This document shows positions 18,155-33,597 of a stretch of 64,000 nucleotides of DNA, one piece after another. The stretch's first letter is position 1. Every line of letters begins with the position of its first letter. A program made the position numbers and the translations under genes. A model generated the notes under the pieces. It had not been told where the DNA came from. It was given only the letters and a program-made list of their open reading frames with translations, and ran no database searches. Source of the DNA: Octopus vulgaris (lineage: Eukaryota); assembly GCA_951406725.2 (NCBI GenBank), contig OX597819.1:123070001-123134000 (forward strand). Reading direction: 5' to 3'.

Positions 18155-19986
<1,832 letters not shown>

Positions 19987-21349: not shown

Positions 21350-21543
21350 TATTTTCCTACTTACTAGATATGGCAAACTTAACGTATAACGAACGAAGTA
21401 TTACTTTGACATTCAAACGGTAATTCACCTGAAGGTAATTATATGATAACGTTAAACCACGTGTTTTATAAAGGCAGGAATCGAGAACTAGAGTGGTTAA
21501 CGAATGAGCTGCATGATTTCACCACAGTCCGAACAGATTTATA

Positions 21544-22055
21544 TTAGTTAGTTAGTTAGTTAGTTAGTTAATTTTTTGGCTCAAAAGCAAAAAGCAAGGC
21601 CATGTAGGGGGACATGGAGTTAAGTACAGGGTGGTGTTCATGTAAAGAGTTCAGGCCACTTGAGGTCAAGGGAGACTTTGAACAAAGCGGGCGTCGGCAT
21701 CTTCACCATCTCGTCTGGCAGCTTGTTCCACGGATCCGCAACCCGGACGGAGAAACCTCCTCTCCTTCGATTGAGATGAAATCGTCGCAGGTAGAGCTTT
21801 TCGGAATGACCCCGCAGCCAACGCTCTGGGGCAGGAGTGAAGAACAGCTCTTTCGAGAGGTTACACTTTCCGCTTATGATGTTGTGAGCGAGAATGAGAT
21901 CACCACGGCGGCGGCGTTTTTCTAGAGAATAAAGGTCGAGCGTCTTCAGCCTTTCGTCATAAGACAAATTCTTGAGACCATGAAGCATGCGGGTAGCCAG
22001 CTTCTGGACTCTTTCGAGATGCTGTATGTCTTTGAGGAGATAAGGAGAAGAGGCT
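21544..22055 (-). mobile_element. CR1 LINE 3' fragment with (TAAC)n tail
   Basis: LSYDERLKTLDLYSLEKRRRRGDLI, LRGHSEKL, FSVRVADPWNKLP, FKVSLD: a classic CR1 ORF2 C-terminus. Confidence 0.93.
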
Positions 22056-22764
22056 ATTAAGATTGCCGTATGGTGGCAAGGGTGGAATGGATTATATGAG
22101 TAGTTGGTTGATACTCTATTTCTTGTAGAACTTGGTTTCAGATCCTATATTCAGTTAATTAGTTGGCTGTTCTGTAAATGTTCGTTTCTATGTTAAGTCG
22201 AAGCCCGTCATTAAGTTTTCTGTTACTGTAAATTTCAGTCTGAGAAATTTGCAAGTGAAAGGGATCCAGACTTGTCTATGACGAGCGGCTATGTAGCAAC
22301 GATAAGCGGTTTATTTGCGATGTTTATAGAATATTCATCCTGATTTTGGCAATAAGAAATTGGTGTGGCACTATTTCTTCTGAATCCAATGCAATTTTGG
22401 TTTGCAGTACTCTTCTTATCGTGGGTAATTCGATTATCGTAGAATTGATTAATCATTTTGGATAATTCTTGCTGAGAAATGCTTGGAATCTGTCCAAGTT
22501 TTAAAATAAGCGTTGAAATCTGGAGATATATTGATCAAGCGATATACGGGAAGTGTTTCAAAAATTCCTTAATCATGGAATAATGAATGAGAAAGTTTAA
22601 GGAATGTTAGAGATGATACCACATTTCATACATAGTTTTACGAATCTAGAAACAGATCTTCACCTGTTTCTCTCATAGATTGTGTAATTTAATTACCATA
22701 GAAATTTCAGCTTGGCTCAGAGTACTATCGTTATATGAAACATTCTGAAAAACAGTAATGAATA

Positions 22765-24600: not shown

Positions 24601-24651
24601 GTGCTGTATTTCTATTTCTTTCTTCTTTTTCTCCCATTCTATCTCCCACTA

Positions 24652-25073
24652 TACTCTTTACTCTTTACTCTTTTATTTGTTTCAGTCATTTGACTGCGGC
24701 CATGCTGGAGCACCGCCTTTTAGTCGAGCAAATCGACCCCGGGACTTATTCTTTGTAAGCCCAGTACTTATTCTATCGGTCTCTTTTGCCGAACCGCTAA
24801 GTGTCGGGGACATAAACACACCAGCATCGGTTGTCAAGCAATTCTAGGGGGAACAAACACAGACACACAAACACACACACACATATATATATATTTATAT
24901 ATATACATATATACGACAGGCTTCTTTCAGTTTCCGTCTACCAAATCCACTCACAAGGCATTGGTCGGCCCGGGGCTATAGCAGAAGACACTCGCCCAAG
25001 ATGCCACGCAGTGGACTGAACCCTGAACCATGTGGTTGGTTAGCAAGCTACTTACCACACAGCCACACCTGCG

Positions 25074-25076
<3 letters not shown>
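24652..25076 (-). mobile_element. SINE family A, full length
   Basis: Complete family match. Confidence 0.92.
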
Positions 25077-25140
<64 letters not shown>

Positions 25141-25634
25141 TTATATTTATATATATTTATTTATATATATTTATATATATCGGTTCCGTTTTCAGCAGAG
25201 AAAGACGTGATTGCCTTTGCTCTGTGAAAAAGTTTGCATAGAACGGCGAAATAACCCACTGTAGTTGCAAAACGTAAAACTCTAAGTCATAGAGATCACT
25301 ACAACACTTTGGTTAAAAATATTTTAAAAAATATATATATAAATATATACATATACACAGTAATTTTCATTTTCGCCGAAACGCACATGGTGCAAAAATA
25401 ACTGAATCAAGTTATCTCCTGCAAGAAAGAAAAAGAAGTATCTCTCCTGAAAAAAATCCCGTAAACCAAAAAAAATAATCCAGACCACATTGTTGGATTA
25501 AGTATCAATTTCATCTATTTCATATTTTATTTATTATTCTATTTTATCTTTCACTTAGGCCCACATCTTAGTTAAAGTTGCGATCGTCATTTTGTTTGTT
25601 TACATTTTCAATATCTATTATCGATATAATAATT

Positions 25635-26918
25635 TTCCAGATACTCTATCTTCTAATTAGCCTTAAGATTAAATTAAATAACGTTCAATATTGATACCGT
25701 CAAATTAGCCTTAGGATTAAATTAAATAACGTTTAATATTGTTTAATATTGTTAATAATTATTGTTAATTAGCCTTAAGATTAAATTAAATAACGTTTAA
25801 TATTGTTTTGATATTGTTAATAATTTTTCAGATACTCTATCTTCTAATTAGCCCTAAGATTAAATTAAATAACGTTTAATATTAATAACGTCTAATTAGC
25901 CTTAGGATTAGATTAAATTAAATAACGTTTAATATTGTTAATAATTATTGTTAATTAGCCTTAGGATTAAATTAAATAACGTTTAATATTGTTTAATATT
26001 GTTAATAATTACTGTTAATTAGCCTTAAGATTAAATTAAATAACGTTTAATATTGTTTAATATTGTTAATAATTATTGTTAATTAGCCTTAGGATTAAAT
26101 TAAATAACGTTTAATATTGTTTAATATTGTTAATAATTATTGTTAATTAGCCTTAAGATTAAATTAAATAACGTTTAATATTGTTTTAATATTGTTAATA
26201 ATTCTTCAGATACTCTATCTTCTAATTAGCCTTAAGATTAAATTAAATAACGTTTAATATTACCCACACTCTAATATAATATTAACATTGCTAATATATT
26301 TTCAGATACTCTATCTCCTGATTAGCCTTAAGATTAAATAACGTTTTTATCTACACTCTAATATAATATTAATATTGCTAATACATTTTCAGATACTCTA
26401 TCTTCTAATTAGCCTTAAGATTAAATTAAATAACGTTTAATATTAATAACGTCTAATTAGCCTTAAGATTAAATTAAATAACGGTTAATATTGCTTAATA
26501 TTGTATATATAATTTTTCAGATACTCTGTCTTCTAATTAGCCTTAAGATTAAATTAAATAACGTTTAATATTACCCACACTCTAATATAATATTAATATT
26601 GCTAATATATTTTCAGATACTCTATCTCCAAATTAGCCTTAAGATTAAATAACGTTTTTTTTTTACCCACACTCTAATATAATATTAATATTGCTAATAT
26701 ATTTTCAGATACTCTATCTCCTAATTAGCCTTAAGATTAAACAACGTTTTTATCCACACTCTAATATAATATTAATATTGCTAATACATTTTCAGATACT
26801 CTATCCCCTAATTAGCCTTAAGATTAAATAACGTTTTTACCCAAATAACGTTTTTACACAAACTTTAATATTGTTAATATTTCTTTTTCAAGTACTCTAT
26901 CTTCTAATTAGCCTTAAT
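25635..26918. repeat. Modular AT-rich tandem array, 18 copies of the core TAATTAGCCTTA(A/G)GATTAAA(TTAAA)TAACGTTT
   Basis: Cores counted at 25654, 25702, 25766, 25845, 25893, 25952, 26016, 26080, 26144, 26223, 26319, 26406, 26454, 26534, 26630, 26722, 26809 and 26905 (partial). Confidence 0.95.
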
Positions 26919-26978
26919 ATCTTCCTGTCTTCTCTCGAACATAATTAGATAGATAAACGGATAGACGGATTATCCAGC

Positions 26979-27890
26979 ATGTCCAGAGCATGGAGACGTG
27001 ACGAGCTGGATTTATTCGTACGAGCATGGGAGTGCGCCGGCGGAGATAGCTCTAGCGAGGTGATTGCGGCTGCGCTGAAGAGCAGAGGCTACAAGAGGAC
27101 GGCGGCTCAGATGGAGCGAAAGAGACAGGAATTCGTGCGCTCATATGCGCTTGTACGGTCGCACATTGGCGCACTTGATGCCATCTTTGAGAACGAGCGG
27201 GGCAAAGATGGCAAGAATGGAGACGATGAAAGAAGTCACCCCCACCTGGTGGACGCCCGGGAGGAGGTTTTGAATGAGAAACCTGCCCGGGAAGTGAACC
27301 CAGGTGCAAGTTCTCCAACCGGCAGCAAGGGCCATGGAGACGGAGAACCCGGTGAAGAGGTAGAGGGAGGAAGAAGAACTAAAAGAAGGACTGGAAGAGC
27401 TAAAGGAAAAGAAAAAGCTCAAGCAGGACCAAAGAGTGAAACAACCAGAAATAGAAGTGGAACCGCAAAGGATGGAACCAAACAGCGCACACGGATGTGT
27501 ATGTTCTACCTGAGAGGTTCCTGCTGGCATGGAAAGGAAGGTGCAGGCTGCCGCTTTGCACATCGGGGACCCTGCCACAGAGACACGAGGCAGATGGACA
27601 AACCATCAACACAAAGAAAAGGGATGGACCACGCACCACCTGCCCCAAAGCGGAGGTACGCAGATGTTGTGCGCGCCACAAACAGCCAACATGATGTTGT
27701 CGAAAGAGCAGCTGCTGAGCAACAATCTTTTTTGTGCATGGCACAAAAGATTGTACAGCAGCTGACCTGGCTTCATCAAACCCAAGCCCGCAGGTGGGAC
27801 TACCCACTATATACCAGACCACCACAGCAAACAGACACAGGATGGACACCGCCGGCAACAACGTACACCTCACCTCGATACTCCTACTGA
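26979..27890 (+). CDS. LINE ORF1: N-terminal Myb/SANT-like (trihelix) domain, basic linker, CCCH zinc finger
   Basis: W-RRDELDLFVRAW..IAAALKSRGYKRTAAQMERKRQEFVRSY matches the trihelix pattern W..E...L...W..IA..L...GY.RT..Q...K...L...Y. CMFYLRGSCWHGKEGAGCRFAH is C-x7-C-x8-C-x3-H. Confidence 0.8.
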   Translation: MSRAWRRDELDLFVRAWECAGGDSSSEVIAAALKSRGYKRTAAQMERKRQEFVRSYALVRSHIGALDAIFENERGKDGKNGDDERSHPHLVDAREEVLNEKPAREVNPGASSPTGSKGHGDGEPGEEVEGGRRTKRRTGRAKGKEKAQAGPKSETTRNRSGTAKDGTKQRTRMCMFYLRGSCWHGKEGAGCRFAHRGPCHRDTRQMDKPSTQRKGMDHAPPAPKRRYADVVRATNSQHDVVERAAAEQQSFLCMAQKIVQQLTWLHQTQARRWDYPLYTRPPQQTDTGWTPPATTYTSPRYSY

Positions 27891-30800
27891 ACATCAGAGG
27901 ACTGCAAACACTCAGTAACAGGACAAAGATCCCGTTCCTGAGAGACTTTGTTGCATGCAATCAAGCCATATGCATAGCACTTACAGAAACGCACCTGAAA
28001 CCGGACATAGCAGATGCGGAGTTACACATACCACAGTATGCTGTACTAAGGACCGACAGGAAAGAAAGGAGTCATGGAGGTGTTGCTATGTACATCCGTG
28101 AGGACCTCACACCCCAGGTCCTCTTGTCATACTCAAACTCGGTGTGTGACACACTAATTGTACATATTAAGCAACTTGATGTAGTTGTGTGTGCTACATA
28201 TCGCCCTCCAGATGCCCCAAGCCATGTGGGCAAGTTTGAAGACTGCCTTATAAAAATAGAAGAAATTCTAACCACATTAGAACAACACATAGGTGTGCTT
28301 CTTATGGGAGACTTCAATCTGCCCAATGTCAGATGGCCCGAGGGCCTTTCTCTCCCAGGAATGACAAGATGTGAACGAGGACAGGCGAGGTCCCTCCTGA
28401 ACCTCATCAACACCCTGTACATGGAGCAGGTAATACTCCAACCAACCAGGGCAGGTAACACACTGGATCTCTGCTTCACAAATGACATGGATCTCATCCA
28501 TAATGTGAAAGTGACACCGACACTACTCTCGGATCACAACATGATAGAGCTGACCATGTACGGGCCAAAAGAGAGCACGGACATGCAGCCTACAAGAAAC
28601 CCTCAAAATCTTTCCAGCTTGAACTACCATAAGGCAAACTGGAAACAAATTGAGAAAGAGATCCTCAAACAAAACTGGCCTAAATGTCTCTCCTCGCCAG
28701 ACATCGACGTGAAACTTCAACAATTCATGTCTGTAATGCAAGCCATATGCTACAAATGTGTCCCAGAGAGAAAGGCCACTGTACACAAGAACAAAATCCC
28801 CAGAGAGAGGAAAATTTTAATGAGACGGCGTACGAAATTTTCAAATCGCCTAAACAAACAGATTGAAAGCAGTGAAAAGTCCCGCCTAAAAATAAAACTG
28901 TTGGAAATCGAAAAATGTCTGCAACTCTCCCATGAAAAAGAAAGAGCAGACAAAGAAGCCTGGGCTATAGAAAACATAAAATCTAACCCCAGAGCTTTCT
29001 ACAGGTATGCCAAAGAAACAGCTACAGTGCACTGTAGAATAGGGCCACTCCTCGAAAAGGATGGCACACTTACAGGAAAACCAATGAGGGTAAGTGAAAT
29101 ACTGAATGAGCAATTCAAGAGTGTTTTCACTCCACCCCTTGGGCATCTCCAAATCACCAATCCAACTGACTTTTTTACCACTGCAGATATAAAATCAGAG
29201 GCGGCGACGATAGATTACATCGATATAAAGGAAGACGATGTAACCAAGGCTATAGATGAAATGAAAACAGACTCAGCTACTGGCCCCGATGGATTCCCGG
29301 CAATCCTCCTAAAAGCATGTAAGAGAGTCCTAGCAAGACCACTGCAGTTCCTCTTTCAGAGCTTCCTTGCAGCTGGCAAACTTCCAGGAAAACTGAAGGA
29401 AGGTAAAATATGCCCCATTCATAAAGGAGGTAGCAGAGCGGAAGCCAAGAACTATAGACCTATCTCTCTGACCTCACACATCAGCAAGGTCATGGAACGA
29501 ATAGTCAGAAGGAAGCTGATCACCTTCCTTGAAGAGAATGACTTGCTGCCCGACACCCAACATGGTTTCCGACCAGGGAGAAGCTGTTTAACTCAGCTCC
29601 TACAACACTATGACTGGGTGCTGAAACGGCTGCTCAACCACTCAAATGTGGAAGTGATATATCTCGACTTTGCAAAGGCCTTTGATAAAGTCGATCATGG
29701 AATGATATGTCACAAACTGCGTGATCTCAACATAGTTGGAAAACTGGGAGAATGGCTTCATGACTTTCTGAAGGATAGAAGTCAGGTGGTAGTAGCCAAT
29801 GGGGCCACCTCCATTAACACACAAATAGTGAGCGGTGTTCCGCAGGGCACTGTTCTGGGACCACTACTGTTCATAATGGCCCTCTCAGACATGCCCTCAG
29901 CCACGCAGAGAGCCACGATCACAAGTTATGCAGACGATACAAAAGTTTCACAGGCAATACAGAACCCTGAGGACACTAAACACCTGCAATGTGAGCTGGA
30001 CGAAATATACAAGTGGGCTAAAAACAATAGCATGCAGTTCAATGCTGGAAAGTTTCAAGCTTTATACTATCAGCATGCAAAACTGAATGCAATACCCAAT
30101 GAATACACTGGACCCGGAGGGATTGCAATCCCAGAGGCACAATCAGTGCGTGACCTGGGTATTCACATGAGTGATGACGCGACCTTTCATGTACATGTTG
30201 CTAAACTGACAATGAAATGTAGACGGCTGGCTGGATGGATTCTTAGAACCTTTAGAACAAGAGAACAAGAAACCATGATGGTCCTCTGGAAGACACTTGT
30301 CCTAAGCCACTTTGACTATTGCTCTCAGCTATGGTCACCATCCAGTGTCAAGTTGATCACAGAACTTGAGGCGATCCAACGAAGCTACACAAAGAAGATA
30401 GCCTCTATGCAGAATGTAAGCTACTGGGAAAGACTCAAGAGATAAAAATTATATTCCCTGGAGCGTAGGCGGGAAAGATATGCCATAATATACATCTGGA
30501 AGATCCTGGAGGGAAGTGTCCTGAACTTTGGCATCGAGAGTTACGCAAATGCCAGAACTGGGCGCCACTGCGTGGTGCCTAGGACTCCAAACCTGCCATC
30601 AAGATGTAGGACAAGATTCTGTGATAGCCTGGGCTTCCGAGGCCCACAGCTCTTCAATATCCTCCCGAAGAACCTGAGAGACCTGCATGGGGTGGATACA
30701 GATGTCTTTAAAATGAAGCTGGATCTCTTCCTGTCAGGTGTCCCAGATGAACCAACTTCACGGCAGGAGGGGCAGATGAGGGCAGCTGCATCGAACTCTC

Positions 30801-30900
30801 TCATGCACCAAATAGCAGTTGCTAGAAGCCTCCATGAAGTGAAACCAAGTAGCAACACCAAATGGCGGTGCCCCAGCATGGCCACAGCTCATAGGCTGAA
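27842..30900 (+). CDS. LINE ORF2 (APE endonuclease + reverse transcriptase) with one in-frame TAA at 30443-30445
   Basis: LNIRGL, LTETHL, GGVAMY, YRPP, GDFN, LDL, SDH (APE). [39 protein letters not shown] (RT). The same frame resumes after the stop with KLYSLERRRERY..FNILP..LDLFLSGVPDEP. First ATG at 27842. Confidence 0.95.
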
Positions 30901-30926
30901 ACTAGAATCAATCAATCAATCAATCA

Positions 30927-30961
<35 letters not shown>

Positions 30962-32287: not shown

Positions 32288-32951
32288 GTATATATATAAA
32301 TTTATCTGTATACCCACGAGCATATTCCTAAAAAGAGAAGCTGGTGCACGCATTTTTAATAGAGTGAGCATTAATATGCACGGTCAGGAAAAAAATAAAA
32401 CAATGAATAAGACTTCTTCTGTGCTTTTCATTTAAAGAGGAAATGCACCGTTTATAATCATCACTGTATCAACTGCACTAGATATGACAGGTTGACAAAG
32501 CATATTGGAATGTAATTATATATATATATAAATGTGTTTATGCATATTTATATAAATATATTTATATAAATGTATAAATATATATATGTACATATATAAA
32601 TGTATATATATATACGTTTATATATATAAATTCATATATATATATATATATATAAATGCATATATATATATATACATTTATATATATAAATGTATATATA
32701 TATACACATTTATATATATAAATGAATATATATATATATATATATATATAAATATGTATATATTTATATATATAAATGTATATATATATACATTTATATA
32801 TATAAATGAATATATATACATATATATATTTATATATAAATGAATATATATATATATATAAATATATAAATATATATATATATATATACATGTATATATG
32901 TATATATAAATATATAAATATATATATATACATGTATATATGTATATATAA

Positions 32952-33036
<85 letters not shown>

Positions 33037-33398
33037 TGTATGTATGTATGTATGTATGTATGTATGTATATATACATTGCAAATATTGTCATTGTTCTTT
33101 CGGGATATGACTATACGTATAGTGCACACAAATCAATGGCAACCTGGAAAATATTTTATTTTGTACTGTTTTTCTGCAAATTCTTCGAAATTACATTTCT
33201 GTGTTAATGGACCCCGGAAACGAACACAAGTGCATAAAAAGATAAATAATGCAAAACTTCATCACAATATTGGATATCACCGCTGTATATATGTGTATAT
33301 AAGTGAATGTGCATATATGTGTGTGCGAGTGAATATATATATATATACACATATAGATATATATATATACATATATATATATTCGTATATATATATAC

Positions 33399-33463
<65 letters not shown>

Positions 33464-33524
33464 TATATACATATATATATACATATATATACATATATAT
33501 ATATACATACATATATATACATAC

Positions 33525-33589
<65 letters not shown>

Positions 33590-33597
33590 TATATATG
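32120..33597. repeat. Extended (TA)n/(TATG)n/(TATAAA) low-complexity region with short unique inserts
   Basis: Directly visible. Confidence 0.95.

Follow-up and report, generated by a model that had tools for sequence, protein, structure and literature searches.

A young CR1-type LINE family of Octopus vulgaris with a putative Myb/SANT-CCCH ORF1, a recently expanded 5' UTR array and a preference for (TA)n microsatellites

The window analysed in this work, a stretch of 64,000 nucleotides of Octopus vulgaris DNA (contig OX597819.1, positions 123,070,001 to 123,134,000), contains at 25181-30930 a LINE copy on the plus strand, in which a 5' head, a tandem array, ORF1, ORF2 and a tail follow one another in order and both ends are flanked by (TA)n. 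The 5' part of the (TA)n target microsatellite (25076..25180) is host DNA, and 28 of the 35 young copies of the family with a detected 5' end begin in TA. The same tract also adjoins the 5' end of a minus-strand SINE. The element starts with a unique head of 460 bp (25181..25640), which shows 93-99% identity among young copies, has a sharp common start and likely holds an internal promoter. As this head precedes the AT-rich tandem array of 18 cores (25641..26920), the array lies inside the 5' UTR. ORF1 (26979..27890) encodes 303 aa, comprising a Myb/SANT-like domain, a charged linker, one CCCH finger and a long C-terminal helix, and its end is overlapped by the start of ORF2 (27842..30445), which encodes an APE endonuclease and a reverse transcriptase (RT). 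The element closes with a conserved 3' end (30864..30905), common by sequence sharing to an abundant SINE of the genome, and with an (AATC)n tail at about 30906..30930, recognised by repeat analysis and copy comparison, after which the 3' part of the (TA)n target follows (30930..30959). This arrangement agrees with a preliminary description of the locus, which had placed a 303-aa ORF1 just 3' of an 18-core array and the whole block between (TA)n tracts.

The description of the element as near-intact stands for its layout and fails for ORF2, which is about 130 aa shorter here than the 998 aa encoded by an intact copy. The responsible stop codon (TAA at 30443-30445) is private to this copy, since a sense codon occupies that position in 66 of 66 other copies covering it and the frame goes on to about 30835; therefore, the full ORF2 protein can probably not be produced from the window copy. 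In Pfam searches ORF2 matched Exo_endo_phos, Exo_endo_phos_2 and RVT_1 alone, and no RNase H domain was found. A separate ORF1, a short tandem-repeat 3' tail and frequent 5' truncation are traits of the CR1 lineage, whose members, as presented in a CR1/Jockey survey (Metcalfe and Casane, 2014, PMC4120745), resemble the octopus element in having two ORFs, APE and RT, a short repeat tail, 5' truncation and an exchangeable ORF1 N-terminal domain.

A search of the 2.8-Gb genome returned at least 130 ORF1 matches of this family, here family A, with 83-100% identity (130 scored of 5690 candidates). Eighty of the 130 were analysed with their flanks, a non-random sample made up of the top-ranked copies and a spread of diverged ones; the ORF2 frame is open over at least 1036 codons in 29 of these 80, and no ADAR-type A-to-G excess was found among them. 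Close homologues are labelled by source as Octopus vulgaris, O. sinensis and Argonauta hians. Family A is thus a young CR1-type LINE family. No account of it was found in passages of a report on a curated mollusc LINE library (PMC10294476), whose supplements may contain the family, nor in passages of PMC9115989, which deals with RTE-2_OV, the described octopus brain LINE, and in whose main text the term "CR1" does not occur. Both RTE-2_OV and family A are full-length, possibly active octopus LINEs, but the former belongs to the RTE clade and has a single ORF, whereas family A is of CR1 type and has two (PMC9115989).

The suggestion that ORF1 begins with a Myb/SANT-like (trihelix-type) motif was supported by several lines of evidence, and a Myb/SANT fold at its N-terminus is very probable. 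The domain spans residues 3-74 (26985..27200), and ORF1 of the window copy matches PF13837 with an E value of 3e-4 and 21.6 bits, below the gathering cut-off of 27. The structure prediction proposed as a check on the fold gave a Myb/SANT-like helix bundle: from a 20-row alignment, AlphaFold2 (AF2) modelled residues 1-74 with four helices (7-19, 26-35, 42-60 and 63-78) at a pLDDT of 85.9, and the predicted model includes a three-helix bundle with a long third helix. When the model was compared with known structures using VIA-align, Myb/GARP/GT-1 domains took ranks 1 to 5 (ARR1, RAD, GT-1, LUX and PHR2; Z 7.2-8.1, and 7.6-8.1 for the first four), as exemplified by 8xas (Z 8.1, rmsd 2.0, 57 aligned residues). 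TEAD and homeodomains come within 1-2 Z of these top matches, and because they rank so close behind, the assignment is likely and not sharp. Z values of 7-8 are common for small helical models. Foldseek with the predicted domain gave no match at E<=0.001, and a PDB sequence search with the domain profile retrieved no Myb structure; in the ESM Atlas, whose matches serve as leads at most, the best one scored 0.87 and PF13837 clusters took ranks 4-5. Stronger support for the fold comes by way of related families. The profile of the family A domain retrieved 24 of 24 loci of family G, a deeper LINE family described below (23 of them at E <1e-9), and 0 of 6 other Myb loci. The homologous domains of families G and H exceed the gathering threshold of PF13837 on their own, with 27.3 and 29.4 bits and scores of up to 42.9.

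Comparison of the Myb domain with that of families D-F gave a pN of 0.15-0.17 and a pS of 0.52-0.69, and the domain is maintained by purifying selection, also in families whose RT is 42-44% identical to that of family A. Three residues of the recognition helix, R40, Q44 and K48, are conserved. In Myb domains, the Trp of the recognition helix and the polar residue that follows it are positions with a known role. Two host loci (L285 and L286) carry K-W-K where the LINE domains carry K-R/K/I/L, and the K-W-x-N/S motif of two host Myb proteins is absent from the LINE recognition helix. Given this degenerate helix, binding by the domain may be non-specific or directed to protein.

The other conserved blocks of ORF1 are the finger and the C-terminal helix, and the linker is predicted to be disordered. 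As had been noted from the letters alone, ORF1 contains a CCCH zinc finger (27498..27563), C174-x7-C182-x8-C191-x3-H195, whose four ligands are all kept in eight family representatives and which is conserved in families A-F. Its Pfam score stays below the cut-off (16.9 vs 20.5); the finger profile matches Muscleblind-like fingers with E values of 2e-4 to 5e-3 and tandem-CCCH proteins at 96.8%. From its similarity to Muscleblind-like fingers, we consider it fairly probable that the finger binds RNA. The C-terminal helix (residues 236-273, 27684..27797) was modelled by AF2 with a pLDDT of 83-92 over residues 241-270; it shows a low pN (0.02-0.06) relative to pS (0.26-0.38) against families D-F, and likely serves in oligomerisation. 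Pfam detected no RRM, CCHC knuckle, PHD, Tnp22 or esterase domain in ORF1, and the AF2 model contains no beta-sheet domain.

A genome search with PF13837 uncovered two deeper LINE families, G and H, in each of which the matching ORF lies upstream of ORF2. The ORF1 of family G combines Myb with four CCCH fingers and that of family H combines Myb with two CCCH-type fingers. In the same genome, the ORF1 of family I carries no Myb match and consists of a PHD-like domain (a weak Pfam match, E 0.04) and three CCCH fingers; PHD plus three-CCCH proteins share their finger cluster with family G (40% over 83 aa). PHD and Myb alternate in one ORF1 slot on a CCCH scaffold. No genomic context was found for PHD+CCCH proteins outside this genome. 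A set of 80 metagenome loci represents CR1-type elements of more distant relationship; for 38 of these loci, 53 ORFs lying upstream were compared, and none matched Myb or CCCH.

In RT trees, the second of which was built on 69 chosen rows, families A-E, G/H and I group with a large number of unnamed ORF2s in a single supported clade (SH-aLRT 100). In these trees, which are free of named CR1-clade references, the clade is nested among unnamed elements with PHD+RRM-like or esterase ORF1s, the nearest characterised RT relatives. The RT of family I is 50% identical to that of family A and the RTs of G/H are, in full-length comparisons, 42-44% identical to it; for the endonuclease the values are 39-40% and 35-37%. 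A single Myb clade is rejected on the RT tree (AU p=0.005). On the endonuclease tree it is not rejected (AU p=0.085), G/H being weakly grouped with A-F, and that tree does not separate Myb from endonuclease ancestry. The Myb/PHD contrast amounts to one or two independent events.

The preliminary description did not recognise this architecture as one already reported, and in listings of the openly searchable literature no LINE was found whose ORF1 is described as carrying Myb/SANT or CCCH. In the survey of 448 CR1/Jockey elements, the ORF1 domains listed are PHD, RRM, CCHC, coiled coil, Tnp22 and esterase; the main text nowhere uses "Myb", "SANT" or "CCCH", no Octopus element appears in its supplement, and in its scheme, as given there, the ORF1 of family A would fall into the unclassified type V (Metcalfe and Casane, 2014, PMC4120745). 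This ORF1 type is apparently uncatalogued, and Repbase and Dfam may already hold family A.

The array begins behind the unique head and consists of 17 full cores and one partial core, starting at 25655 to 26906, in monomers of 48-96 bp with 15-24% GC; the partial one comes last, beginning 72 bp upstream of the ORF1 ATG, and TRF scores reach 1051. Comparison of copies bore out the idea that the array travels with the LINE and varies in number. The 5' head is present in 56 of the 80 family A copies, and among these 37 young full-length copies carry 14-38 cores (median 17), while 19 more diverged ones carry 0-13. Across the 56 copies, core count correlates with identity to the window copy (Spearman 0.79), and long arrays are block duplications. 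Among the other full-length copies, whose inspection had been proposed as a check, the array was found in the young ones and is missing, with zero cores, from the three most diverged (94-96% identity). Among sister families, the array is absent from 57 of 57 loci of families B-H with a Myb ORF1, some of which are 5'-truncated, and a single proto-core was seen in one. A head homologous to that of family A occurs without the array in two of four family F loci (70-75% identity over about 430 bp). The array is therefore a recent gain or expansion in the 5' UTR of one subfamily of family A.

The proposal that ORF1 binds its own array, as autoregulation or through promoter dosage, did not survive this distribution. 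It would hold that ORF1p binds the cores and regulates the promoter of the element, and it has in its favour that the array belongs to the element and contains a conserved core, that its copy number varies and reaches its highest values in the youngest subfamily, and that the top fold matches of the ORF1 domain are DNA binders. However, the Myb domain is kept in the 57 array-free sister loci and in the three diverged full-length copies that lack the array, the 5' UTR of the family G and H example copies measures only about 330-450 bp, and one copy of family E has grown a different, unrelated array. Because the Myb domain long predates the array, autoregulation is highly improbable and was rejected, and the array is probably not a partner of the Myb domain. 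Instead, it likely modulates transcription by way of host factors, and a promoter role can be put forward as a tentative possibility. In mouse L1, tandem 5' monomers stand at the extreme 5' end of the element. The octopus array resembles them in being made of tandem 5' UTR units that vary in copy number and turn over between subfamilies, and it differs in being internal, 460 bp of unique head coming first, in its 15-24% GC and in its irregular 48-96-bp units.

The array was also considered as a train of splice acceptors, since its monomers contain TTTCAG after CTAAT or TTAAT; this candidate was discarded, as the counts are repeats of one unit. Most splice-acceptor estimates for the sister 5' UTRs are no better than shuffles, and the exceptions are mostly inflated at the boundaries by TA tracts or neighbouring repeats. 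No strong splice donor was found in the 5' head and none at the ORF1/ORF2 boundary, and among the matches listed from assembled contigs of seven runs neither a GT-AG joint nor a loose end resembling an exon was seen at array sites. Rfam gave two weak matches far below the cut-off, both on TA tracts, and folding of the 3' end gave a z of -0.8.

Family A prefers (TA)n microsatellites, above both background and a control LINE. Directly after the tail, (TA)n follows in 27 of the 29 copies found via their 3' end, and TA stands at the new 5' junction in seven of nine 5'-truncated copies (one of them an N gap). Since truncated copies adjoin TA as well, the tracts represent target DNA. Junctions read AATC/AT or AAT/AT (the slash marking the joint), and target duplications are unreadable within TA. 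The other Myb families, each with its own tail, have TA at the 3' junction in 7/9 (B), 7/9 (C), 13/16 (D-F), 4/5 (G) and 8/8 (H) loci, counts that leave out loci without a detectable 3' end and, as for all junction counts, include a few loci resembling segmental duplicates. In contrast, the value for the PHD+CCCH family I is 5/26, the difference from family A being significant (p=1.5e-8), and for the control LINE it is 1/30 and, in a second count, 1/24, against a TA background of 7.7%. The control is a more distant element from the window. In family I, junctions often fall at a TA dinucleotide and rarely in long tracts. TA strictness in family A is lower in diverged copies (14/24) than in young ones (37/44), so that part of the difference from family I may stem from age. 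Of 39 cases of the SINE sharing the 3' end of family A, 11 adjoin TA, a count based on an imperfect tail parse.

These data also bear on the possibility that the TA context is secondary, that is, that insertion is near random and TA tracts grow later, or TA insertions survive better. Tracts are dense (7-8% of window positions and 16% in distal flanks), and no empty pre-insertion sites were seen, nor can target duplications be read inside the repeats, all of which such a scenario would accommodate. Nevertheless, the tie to TA is closest in the youngest copies (99%+), TA is found at both junctions, new 5' truncation points included, and the control LINE of the same genome shows TA in 1/30 and 1/24 cases alone; hence we regard a secondary origin as very unlikely.

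Preference for one microsatellite has precedents. Waldo (ACAY), Mino (AC), Kibi (TC), Koshi (TTC) and Dong (TAA) are non-LTR elements that, like family A, strongly prefer one microsatellite, and the site choice of microsatellite-targeting LINEs is believed to be governed mainly by cleavage by the endonuclease; in the passage of the review concerned, a TA target is given for Micron MITEs alone (PMC3812793). Family A differs from these elements in its TA target, its CR1-type ORF2 and a candidate determinant that lies in ORF1 and not in the endonuclease. Naiad Penelope-like elements, which occur in cephalopods, also prefer (TA)n, and a small accessory domain has been proposed for its recognition; according to the sections of that report that describe them, they have a GIY-YIG endonuclease, another RT class and no Myb ORF1 (PMC8557442).

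We hypothesize that family A is a TA-inserting CR1-type LINE in which the ORF1 finger holds RNA and the Myb domain tethers the particle to TA-rich DNA, with a recent array that tunes transcription by way of host factors, and we give this reading as a whole a probability of roughly 45%. The CCCH finger and the charged linker would hold the element RNA, the C-terminal helix would oligomerise ORF1p, and the Myb domain would bring the particle to DNA rich in TA; there, the endonuclease of ORF2 would nick within a TA tract and the AT end of the tail would anneal at the nick, priming reverse transcription. Target-primed reverse transcription is the standard LINE mechanism. Myb-type domains serve mobile elements as DNA recognisers elsewhere: R2 and TRAS carry Myb motifs in the RT protein, and in Harbinger a Myb/SANT protein binds the ends of the DNA element; family A has such a domain in the ORF1 of an APE-LINE. 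The tether was chosen because Myb and PHD families are interleaved in the RT tree and the preference for TA goes with the ORF1 module. The earlier idea that ORF1 binds AT-rich target DNA thus gained correlative support from the TA preference of the Myb families against 5/26 in family I. That the Myb domain takes part in choosing the site remains tentative, with the odds somewhat against it, and the stronger proposal, that Myb replaced PHD on a CCCH-type ORF1 and thereby turned a loosely inserting CR1 lineage (TA)n-specific as its target selector, is in our view unlikely.

Nearly as likely as the main reading is that the endonuclease, helped by AT microhomology of the tail, sets the TA preference alone, and that the Myb/SANT domain, substituting for PHD, has a different function, for instance chromatin or host-protein binding or non-specific nucleic-acid chaperoning. 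PHD and Myb/SANT domains are both able to read chromatin. Because the endonuclease tree permits one Myb clade, and with it one origin of all TA-seeking families, shared endonuclease ancestry could explain the preference without ORF1. The alternation of the two domains in one slot of a common CCCH scaffold, the degenerate recognition helix, the endonuclease precedent in microsatellite-targeting LINEs (PMC3812793) and the fact that Naiads, as described, reach (TA)n without a Myb-type domain (PMC8557442) point in the same direction. On the other hand, the RT tree puts Myb families on either side of the PHD family, the endonuclease of family I is as similar to that of family A as are those of G/H, and family I often meets TA dinucleotides, yet rarely long tracts.

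The main reading, in which Myb acts as a tether, touches a choice usually credited to the endonuclease in LINEs. This work adds an ORF1 architecture to the class (Myb/SANT or PHD, followed by one to four CCCH fingers and then a C-terminal helix) and describes a TA-seeking, recently active CR1-type clade, which likely drives the abundant SINE with the shared 3' end. Should the endonuclease explain everything, there would still be a new type of ORF1 and a 5' UTR array whose expansion is well dated. If the Myb domain is indeed a target selector, ORF1p would be a DNA-site finder and not an RNA chaperone alone. The Myb families A-H and the PHD family I form a matched pair within one genome, and since one ORF1 module and the target preference distinguish these related families, the role of ORF1 is directly testable.

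Insertion next to (TA)n was also seen in other LINE copies related to the Myb/SANT-ORF1 element. A 5'-truncated, G/H-like copy (window 18695-19868), 82% identical to family H, one of the deeper sister families, is flanked at both ends by long (TA)n tracts. The window additionally contains two very long TA-rich microsatellites, of 540 bp (18155-18694) and 1080 bp (32517-33596). As a control for TA-tract preference we used a different young LINE, whose tail is (TAAC)n and which is represented in the window by a truncated minus-strand copy (21540-22120); the preference was absent in this family, and a search for its ORF1 found none. Neighbouring copies of the clade were frequent, one having inserted in the TA tract behind the tail of another (L157:2800-3990, L031, L080 and L069, all loci of the same genome). 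Two copies (L033 and L084) lie in (AAT)n/(ATC)n instead of (TA)n, and there the junction is again made via AT.

A motif resembling a splice acceptor, CTAAT/TTAAT...TTTCAG, closes many monomers of the main element's AT-rich array (window 25641-26920), and the sense strand of the sister families' 5' UTRs is rich in pyrimidines. The assembled contigs of seven runs gave no evidence of splicing at these motifs. A family E copy also carries a 5' UTR tandem array, of 64-70-bp units (L163:4580-5125); it is unrelated to that of the window element and is an independent array gain.

The ORF1 of family I, a young LINE (loci L369-L394) with an (AAATG)n tail, comprises a PHD-like domain and three CCCH fingers, a second layout absent from the 2014 catalogue (Metcalfe and Casane, 2014; PMC4120745). 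Elsewhere in the window, an intronless ORF of 383 codons (1010-2161) reads, by eye, like a putative rhodopsin-family neuropeptide GPCR.

Finally, an abundant type of SINE (window 24650-25075, minus strand) has its 3' end in common with the conserved LINE terminus at 30864-30905, approximately 45 nt being common to the SINE and the Myb-ORF1 LINE clade. Its tail is of the TAAAAGAG type, the same as that of LINE family B. The Myb-ORF1 LINE clade is the likely mobiliser of this abundant SINE.
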